From positions 1 to 25,834 of the forward strand of contig CAYMPD010000017.1 in the NCBI GenBank assembly GCA_964392445.1: a DNA stretch of 25,834 bases, in the 5' to 3' direction. Within the stretch, counting starts at the first letter, position 1. Each line of letters starts with the position of its first letter. This document shows, piece by piece, positions 258 to 17,730 of this stretch. The position numbers were made by a program, and so were the translations under genes. This stretch comes from an uncultured archaeon (GTDB lineage Archaea > Aenigmatarchaeota > Aenigmatarchaeia > CG10238-14). Below the pieces are notes generated by a model that did not search any database, was not told the origin of the DNA, and worked only from the letters and a program-made list of their open reading frames with translations.

Positions 258-265
258 TTTAAATA
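258..265 (+). promoter_or_regulatory. TATA box of the basic-peptide gene
   Basis: TTTAAATA (archaeal consensus TTTAWATA) about 40 nt upstream of ATG 304; an AGGT-containing RBS-like stretch (aaggtaaggttga) directly precedes the ATG. Confidence 0.6.
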
Positions 266-303
266 AGACTTATACAAGATAAAAAAATCAAAGGTAAGGT
301 TGA

Positions 304-435
304 ATGGCTGTAAGAAGAAAAAAAACATCTTCTAGGACTAAGTCATCGAAAAGAAAAACGACAAAAAGAGCTGGTGGAAAGAGAAAAAGTACAAGAAAAA
401 CCACAACTAGAAAAAAGAGGGCAAAGCGTCGATGA
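304..435 (+). CDS. 43-aa Lys/Arg-rich histone-tail/protamine-like peptide (not in ORF track)
   Basis: Manual translation: MAVRRKKTSSRTKSSKRKTTKRAGGKRKSTRKTTTRKKRAKRR*. 23 of 43 residues are K/R, 13 are S/T, none are acidic. Flanked by TATA box, RBS and T-tract. Confidence 0.75.
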   Translation: MAVRRKKTSSRTKSSKRKTTKRAGGKRKSTRKTTTRKKRAKRR

Positions 436-448
436 ACTTAAAAGTTGG

Positions 449-469
449 TTTTTGTTTTTTGTTTTATTT
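449..469 (+). terminator. T-rich archaeal-type terminator
   Basis: tttttgttttttgttttattt, 13 nt after the TGA of the basic peptide. Confidence 0.55.
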
Positions 470-17556: not shown

Positions 17557-17730
17557 TTATGCATCTCTTGCTTTGAGTGTCTTTCTCCTATTTGCGTCTG
17601 CTCTGTCAGCTGCTCTCTTAACCATTCTGACTACATCAGCGTTTAGTGCTTCTAGGAAGTCTTCACTGACATTGAATCTGTCTCTAACTAAGTCTCTAAC
17701 TGCGCTCTTTACAATTACTCTATTTGCCAT
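17557..17730 (-). CDS. Short tail-less histone-fold protein (alpha3-type / DUF1931-like), 57 aa (not in ORF track)
   Basis: Manual translation: MANRVIVKSAVRDLVRDRFNVSEDFLEALNADVVRMVKRAADRADANRRKTLKARDA*. Contains the histone signature A.AN.RKT...RD and a strong RBS GGAGGGTGA. Confidence 0.92.
   Translation of the reverse strand: MANRVIVKSAVRDLVRDRFNVSEDFLEALNADVVRMVKRAADRADANRRKTLKARDA

Follow-up and report, generated by a model that had tools for sequence, protein, structure and literature searches.

We analyzed contig CAYMPD010000017.1 of the uncultured archaeon assembled as GCA_964392445.1 (Aenigmatarchaeota; Aenigmatarchaeia; CG10238-14), a stretch of 25,834 nucleotides (nt) that we call the window. 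Close to its start lies an open reading frame (ORF) of 43 codons coding for a polycation with 23 lysines and arginines and no acidic residue. Comparison with related genomes identifies this ORF as a real gene that had escaped annotation. Its composition and a short core are conserved, it is single-copy, it occurs in part of one genus, and it matches no known family. The function that we favor, and to which we give about even chances, is that of a lineage-restricted polycation of DPANN archaea, akin to protamines, to the tails of linker histone H1, and to the chlamydial protein Hc2, which would bind nucleic acids non-specifically with DNA as the first candidate.

The genome of the window (G000, in which the window is contig C17) comprises 1.215 Mb in 54 contigs, is 94.9% complete, and has a G+C content of 34.5%. 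It belongs to a genus represented by five species genomes, G000 to G004, of which G001 is 81% and G003 97% complete. We also used three metagenome contigs, L129, L130, and L131, that carry a NUDIX gene of at least 70% identity. In what follows, A2 is the protein alignment of the five members of the peptide family and A3 the DNA alignment of the same five loci. The locus is organized as follows:

246-266, + strand: promoter block with the TATA box TTTAAATA (258-265), read from the sequence and near-invariant in A3
291-300, + strand: Shine-Dalgarno-like site AAGGTAAGGT, 4 nt 5′ of the ATG; AAGGTAA is invariant in the five loci
304-435, + strand: polycation gene, 43 codons, ATG start and TGA stop, MAVRRKK...RAKRR, recognized by its translation, four syntenic homologues, A2, substitution rates, and the constraint on composition
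364-387, + strand: conserved core KRAGGKRK (family consensus RR[AV]G[AG]KR[KT]), with R22, G24, K26, and R27 invariant in A2
382-406, + strand: 12-nt tandem duplication, 2.1 copies, yielding RKST-RKTT (Tandem Repeats Finder, score 36)
449-469, + strand: T-rich tract, by its position a probable archaeal terminator, perhaps leaky; T-rich tracts lie 3′ of the stop in 5/5 loci
484-906, + strand: NUDIX hydrolase gene (Pfam PF00293, E 9.3e-17), possibly co-transcribed with the peptide gene and its downstream neighbor in 5/5 loci

A conserved gene for an acid-free polycation

The product, MAVRRKKTSSRTKSSKRKTTKRAGGKRKSTRKTTTRKKRAKRR, has 43 amino acids (aa), including 12 K and 11 R, and 13 S or T. It lacks D, E, F, W, Y, H, and P altogether, and its net charge is about +23. 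An earlier first-pass annotation of the window, made from the sequence, had given this composition exactly (23 K/R, 13 S/T, no acidic residue, 43 codons), and the promoter element, the ribosome-binding site, and the T-tract are all as it described them. It had also spoken of a complete transcription unit. This holds in that the gene has its own TATA box, Shine-Dalgarno site, and T-tract, but the unit may not end there: the spacer to the NUDIX gene, 48 nt in the window, has no TATA box at a workable distance, and hence expression of NUDIX may depend on read-through of the T-tract from the promoter of the peptide gene.

ORFs of this kind are rare in the genome. Only 2 of the 7,665 ORFs of 25-60 aa in G000 have at least 39% K/R and are free of D, E, F, W, Y, and H, and a looser filter (25-80 aa, at least 40% K/R, no D/E) retains 6 of 8,496. 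In 232 loci (661 kb, partly redundant), the ORFs of such composition were the family members only. One could expect A-rich open frames at 34.5% G+C, yet such ORFs are uncommon. Searching G000 with A2 (hmmsearch --max) revealed no paralogue, the next best match having an E-value of 2. Outside the window, a 77-aa ORF (C44:2074-2307, + strand), possibly just a different frame of some other gene, has 43 K/R, no D/E, and many N and Q residues.

The first homologue came from a weak match in the congener G004: an ORF of 34 aa whose next neighbors downstream are the NUDIX and thymidylate kinase orthologues. In total, four homologues that conserve the K/R content were found, each in the same position immediately 5′ of the NUDIX orthologue, which is the syntenic conservation that the first-pass annotation had suggested looking for. 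The five members differ in length by whole codons (G000, 43 aa; G004, 34; G002, 38; L130, 41; L131, 37). The distance from the ORF to NUDIX is always 45-60 nt, with a T-tract in between.

Conservation extends to the expression signals and to part of the protein. The promoter block, TTATTAACTAwwTAAA, is near-invariant in all five loci; the AAGGTAA and the ATG are kept, and a T-tract follows every stop (A3). In the proteins, M1, R22, G24, K26, and R27 are invariant, whereas the codons of G24 are GGT, GGG, GGT, GGA, and GGA, i.e., three different codons across five genes. No alternative frame stays open in every locus; an E/K/Q-rich one that is open over 66 codons in G004 is interrupted in G000 and G002. 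The pairwise ratio of nonsynonymous to synonymous substitution rates (dN/dS) ranges from 0.18 to 0.90 and is below 1 in 10/10 pairs. At about 30-40% nucleotide divergence, none of the five members contains a single D, E, F, W, Y, or H. We simulated neutral evolution from three of the genes (five descendants, 2,000 runs) on a star phylogeny, which overstates independence. With 0.15-0.20 changes per site on each branch, 0-9 of the 2,000 runs left all descendants free of these residues; with 0.10 changes, 7-83 of the 2,000 did so. From these comparisons, the constraint on the sequence appears weak, while the composition is held. The synteny, the in-frame length changes, the conserved promoter and Shine-Dalgarno site, the core with its synonymous variation at glycine, and the acid-free composition together lead us to conclude that the ORF at 304-435 is a real, unannotated gene.

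Distribution within and beyond the genus

A single-sequence search, which overlooked the copy in G002 and is thus insensitive, found the peptide in 2 of 41 related genomes. A three-member profile finds G002 and G004. Neither this profile nor a DNA pattern of the core, which recovers G000, found the peptide in G001 or G003, and the total is thus 3 of the 41 related genomes. A stricter core pattern matched 6 of the 118 genomes of the order. Two of these matches are the peptides of G004 and G002, another two are canonical histone genes in genomes of genus g10, and the remaining two lie at unrelated sites. As a control for chance, the DNA pattern was also run in reverse, and it matched in 4 of the 118. 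Hence, the core-motif pattern did not find the peptide outside the genus in the 118 genomes of the order, and a profile search of a sample of 201 genomes of the class gave weak matches at most (best E 0.004). The family is known from three of the five genomes of the genus and from two metagenome contigs.

To see what occupies the site elsewhere, we read the region 5′ of NUDIX in 11 orthologous loci. The peptide gene is present in three (G000, G004, G002). In G001, NUDIX abuts the gene upstream and there is no peptide ORF. Six loci from genomes of related genera (G018, G007, G022, G019, G015, G021; L007-L009, L011-L013) have a long tRNA gene at this position, directly 5′ of NUDIX. In the last one, G009, which belongs to the same family as the window organism, the position is taken by a 25-codon hyper-acidic ORF, MGDDDYEYDLDEDDDWDTESDDEEW (L010:1378-1455, + strand), with a TATA-like element upstream. 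Of the metagenome contigs, two carry the peptide (L130 and L131); the third, L129, is without it and similar to G001. The NUDIX tree (13 rows) does not resolve the branching within the genus and fits both a loss in the G001/L129 lineage and a gain in the others.

Protein collections were of little help. The exact five sequences are absent from a collection of 15 billion proteins. A word-indexed profile search of 5.8 billion proteins with alignment A1 gave nothing at E≤10 among proteins of near length (122 candidates) and nothing at E≤1 among longer ones (6,244 candidates), i.e., no fused form of the peptide. Scanned in full with HMMER, 1.84 billion representatives contained no match at E≤0.001. 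The gene has evidently never been called by gene callers. These blanks say little about its rarity, because the collection does not contain even the five known members. We also considered viral relatives: 13 pattern matches in viral contigs were not confirmed, and none of the five members matched PHROGs.

Proposed function and competing explanations

We infer from the sequence that the peptide is translated and that it binds nucleic acids, DNA rather than RNA. With a charge of about +23 and no residues for a hydrophobic core, the chain would be unable to fold alone. Its clusters of K and R, spaced by S, T, and A, would be suited to bind the phosphate backbone non-specifically, DNA being the first candidate, and would neutralize charge in the manner of protamines, of the C-terminal tails of linker histones, and of chlamydial Hc2. 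The peptide might become helical upon binding. The core RR[AV]G[AG]KR, its only position-specific element, could serve as a groove anchor. Condensation of nucleic acids, close to the DNA-condensing role that the first-pass annotation had put forward, seems the most economical reading for an acid-free polycation. What favors DNA over RNA or the ribosome is limited to three points: the peptide is patchy in distribution, fast-evolving, and lineage-specific; its composition is Hc2-like; and a look-alike occurs in the SWIB tails described below.

The likeness to known proteins is one of class and, as far as sequence comparison can tell, the peptide belongs to no described family. At E≤10, the window copy matches no family in Pfam, protamine P1 included, and NCBIfam gave no match either. 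The only Pfam family with any signal is HC2 (PF07382), in 2/5 members and below threshold: the better match has an E-value of 0.005 and scores 17.4 bits, where the cut-off is 40. The window copy is not one of these two, and none of this amounts to membership. In the ESM-Atlas, the nearest clusters are unnamed hypothetical proteins of 39-49 aa (score 0.90), and the nearest named cluster carries HC2 (0.83). Chlamydial Hc2 (HctB) and the bacterial H1-like proteins rich in K, A, and T share with the peptide an acid-poor K/R polycation, spacing by A, T, and V, and the lack of a fold of their own, and DNA condensation by charge is presumed for Hc2 and the peptide alike. They differ in that Hc2 has about 170-200 aa made of pentapeptide-type repeats, whereas the peptide has 34-43 aa without a repeat array, is archaeal, and has a non-repetitive conserved core. 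Protamines and other sperm nuclear basic proteins also have 30-50 aa, clusters of K and R with S and T, and no acidic residues. The peptide differs from them in mixing K and R instead of being dominated by arginine, in having no cysteine, in being prokaryotic, and in showing no sequence relation. The C-terminal domain of linker histone H1, and the domain-less H1 of some protists, are likewise disordered, lysine-rich, DNA-neutralizing chains that may fold on DNA. In contrast to this domain, the peptide has no proline and no S/TPKK motif, is much shorter, and is encoded by a gene without a winged-helix domain.

A similar polycation occurs in another family of the same archaeal class. Two genomes (G169 and G094) carry stand-alone polycations of 39-43 aa rich in K, R, T, and V upstream of a parvulin gene (L114:1489-1620 and L229:1474-1593, respectively). 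Their look-alike, with 68% identity over 28 residues, is the N-terminal tail of 70-79-aa SWIB proteins in G104 and G217 (L227:1486-1725 and L230:1366-1578). In these proteins, the C-terminal part aligns with the first half of the SWIB/MDM2 domain, scoring 26 bits where 25 is the cut-off. SWIB is a chromatin-associated domain. These look-alikes have no detectable homology to the peptide. They start with M-[IV]-F-G and are devoid of the RR[AV]G[AG]KR core, and the SWIB domain was found in none of the five genomes of the genus.

Several points weigh against a DNA-condensing role. The family comprises five sequences of one genus, so conservation is shallow; outside the core the constraint appears weak (dN/dS up to 0.90), and the alignment of such low-complexity sequences is uncertain. 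The star tree of the simulation exaggerates the independence of the members, two of which (L130 and L131) are close relatives. The evidence would fit DNA binding and RNA binding alike; the function is deduced from composition. The neighbors (NUDIX, thymidylate kinase, AAA_17 kinase, tRNA) are linked only vaguely to nucleotide or DNA metabolism. Finally, in the AlphaFold model residues 10-42 form one helix (mean pLDDT 73.4, pTM 0.36), but this is the usual output for peptides rich in K, R, and A and proves nothing; the predicted helix could form only on a polyanion.

The foremost alternative, which we consider unlikely but the most serious, is that of a small ribosomal or RNA-binding peptide specific to this lineage, which would neutralize charge within the rRNA or act as an RNA chaperone. 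Very basic peptides of 25-45 aa are typical of the ribosomal proteins that were discovered late, and bTHX, bS22, bL37, and eL41 are the small ribosomal proteins to compare it with. Moreover, eS30 and eL41 were not detected in G000, and the nearest ESM-Atlas clusters are, as said, unnamed. However, eS30 is undetected in 40 of the 41 relatives; it is thus missing across the order, whether or not the peptide is present, and the Pfam models S30 and L41 do not match the peptide. The peptide also has no aromatic and few hydrophobic residues. Its distribution argues in the same direction: it was not found in 2/5 genomes of the genus, one of which is 97% complete, nor outside the genus. Identity to the G000 copy is 32-50% for the peptide, compared with 67-76% for the adjacent NUDIX protein (orthologues of the genus, including the peptide-less G001 and L129). 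The peptide thus evolves faster than its neighbor, unlike ribosomal proteins. Patchiness within the genus and this faster evolution make a core ribosomal role unlikely and fit better with a lineage-specific accessory of chromatin or nucleic acids.

We searched for the two missing ribosomal proteins themselves. The eS30 family has a conserved AGK motif. The eS30 profile (PF04758) has no match in G000 at E≤10, and phmmer --max with the eS30-like protein of G002, as well as a regular expression for the motif, were blank on the 31,856 six-frame ORFs of G000. The eL41 profile (PF05162) matches in 0/5 genomes of the genus. Identification as a known small ribosomal protein, which the first-pass annotation had named among the outcomes that would overturn its proposal, therefore did not occur. 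The only eS30-like ORF in the genus lies on contig C32 of G002 (L209:960-1202, + strand; 80 aa, 19 bits, below the cut-off). This ORF may be contamination, since it adjoins a 320-aa gene without a counterpart in G000 and was not found in the other four genomes.

The ORF might instead be a regulatory upstream ORF or leader, whose translation and T-tract would set how much transcription or translation reaches NUDIX, the peptide itself being incidental. The constant short distance to NUDIX, the T-tract in between, and the lack of a convincing separate promoter speak for it, as does the arrangement in the two loci without the ORF, G001 and L129, where NUDIX directly adjoins the gene before it. Yet a spacer ORF has no need for selection on composition or for a specific core with synonymous variation at glycine, and K and R have no known link to NUDIX function, so that we regard this explanation as rather improbable. 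We give marginally less credit to the possibility of a young or decaying ORF without function, an A/G-rich intergenic stretch that stays open in a few relatives. It would account for the narrow distribution, with absence or loss in the G001/L129 lineage, for dN/dS values reaching 0.90, and for the silence of the gene callers. It does not sit well with the conservation of promoter, Shine-Dalgarno site, and start, with length changes that are all in frame, with a composition that neutral simulation rarely maintains at the observed divergence, or with the genome-wide rarity of such ORFs.

If the peptide is indeed a condensing polycation, it would add to the known repertoire. To our knowledge, reviews of archaeal chromatin cover histones, Alba, and lineage-specific folded proteins, and no free polycations resembling protamines or H1 tails. 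A literature search found no description of a free protamine- or H1-tail-like polycation of archaeal chromatin. Such micro-genes are invisible to the usual annotation pipelines. If such peptides bind DNA, DPANN archaea with their tiny genomes would carry an unrecognized, charge-neutralizing layer of chromatin that proteome and annotation pipelines systematically miss. The single instance is narrow (five sequences, one genus), and the peptide is a short and easily synthesized test object.

Relation to histones

The first-pass annotation had proposed a connection between the peptide and a small histone encoded elsewhere in the window:

17557-17730, − strand: alpha3-type histone, 57 aa (PDB sequence matches; given as context, no specific link to the peptide being shown)

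This tail-less histone is real and of alpha3 type. Searched against the PDB with phmmer, it matches 9f2c (E 4e-6), 8fvx (0.0086), and 8cmp (0.0096), the latter two being of Bdellovibrio type, and it carries at its C-terminus the motif RRKTLKARD, of the RKT...D type. It has no match to the Pfam histone families. The protein fits the alpha3 family as this is defined in Schwab et al. 2024 (PMC11390915). Outside the window, G000 encodes two canonical HMf-type histones with short N-terminal extensions only, at C6:22641-22826 (+ strand, 73 aa) and C3:49937-50122 (− strand, 69 aa). Hence, G000 combines nucleosomal-type and alpha3-type histones.

The core of the peptide resembles the L1 loop motif of canonical histones in the family of the window organism, which reads ...LRKAGAKRVS... 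in G000 and ...LRRAGAKRVS... in the genus g10. The arginine of this motif is presumably R19 in HMfB numbering. The regular expression [KR][KR][AV]G[AG][KE]R, which was widened after the histones had been seen and is therefore not an independent test, matches 3 of the 31,856 six-frame ORFs of G000: the peptide and the two canonical histones. The alignment between peptide and histone covers 7-9 residues (hhalign: probability 1.6%, E 0.032, 9 columns; BLASTP: E 0.021), and shuffled peptides did no worse in 4-29% of the trials with histone A and in 2-15% of those with histone B. With this hhalign probability, and a score that does not exceed the shuffle control, the peptide shows no histone fold (PF00808), which sets it apart from the canonical histones. 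Descent of the peptide from a histone L1 loop was also considered; by hhalign, BLASTP, and the shuffles, the resemblance is not above chance, and we treat it as a lead, not as a finding. R10 and R19 of HMfB are given as minor-groove anchors by Henneman et al. 2018 (PMC6136690).

It is conceivable, though improbable, that the peptide is a reduced, free copy or mimic of the groove-anchoring L1 loop (RRAGAKR) of the host's own canonical histones, with a polycation around it. Acting in trans where histones are bound, it would compete with histone dimers for their contacts on the DNA or bridge them, and would be one of many hidden protamine-like micro-proteins of DPANN archaea. If so, the tail-less chromatin of archaea would gain a diffusible and possibly modifiable "tail".

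The first-pass annotation had suggested that the peptide is a free-standing histone tail acting in trans with the alpha3 histone, with S, T, and K as modification sites. Part of its case was the shared layout of promoter, ribosome-binding site, and terminator in both genes. This layout is present, but it is generic for archaea and creates no link. A particular co-occurrence of the two genes is not seen either, since the alpha3 histone is present in 35 of the 41 related genomes and the peptide in 3 of the same 41. The likeness to the tails of H3 and H4 is confined to the window copy: at the position of RKST, the homologues have RKTT, RTAT, RKAV, and RKTT, and at the position of GGK all four have GAK. 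The RKST is a unit of the local 12-nt duplication, which bears out the caution, voiced in the same annotation, that the motif may be a coincidence of low complexity. The S and T positions proposed for modification are not conserved among the family members. Nor is the peptide attached to a histone fold in the manner of H3 and H4 tails; the ORF ends after 43 codons and is followed by NUDIX.

The genomic arrangement of the two genes varies. In G000 they lie 17 kb apart, and between them are an inversion and roughly 15 kb occupied by other genes. The alpha3 histone gene of G004 (L217:2045-2212, − strand) is on the same strand as the peptide gene (L217:4275-4379, − strand) and 2.1 kb downstream of it; starting from the peptide gene, NUDIX, thymidylate kinase, and a kinase lie in between in this order. 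An alpha3 histone gene is found near NUDIX in G010 too, a member of a genus without the peptide, and hence the histone-NUDIX neighborhood is probably ancestral, not functional. The tail hypothesis can point to the shared contig in G000, to the proximity in G004, and to histones in G000 without long tails, but the broad distribution of the alpha3 histone, its neighborhood with NUDIX in the peptide-less G010, and the lack of conservation of RKST, GGK, and the S/T positions leave it the least likely of all.

Neighboring genes

Upstream of the peptide gene, an ORF at 2-244 leaves the contig at its end and has no family match in Pfam or NCBIfam. A scan of the window for bacterial-type promoters and terminators gave nothing relevant; its model is bacterial and thus unsuited to an archaeon. 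Downstream of NUDIX, the following genes were identified:

880-1479, − strand: thymidylate kinase gene, convergent
1529-2116, + strand: AAA_17 kinase gene
2153-2265, + strand: tRNA, 113 nt (Rfam, 61 bits; missed by ARAGORN)

As this tRNA is matched by Rfam and missed by ARAGORN, it presumably contains an intron.

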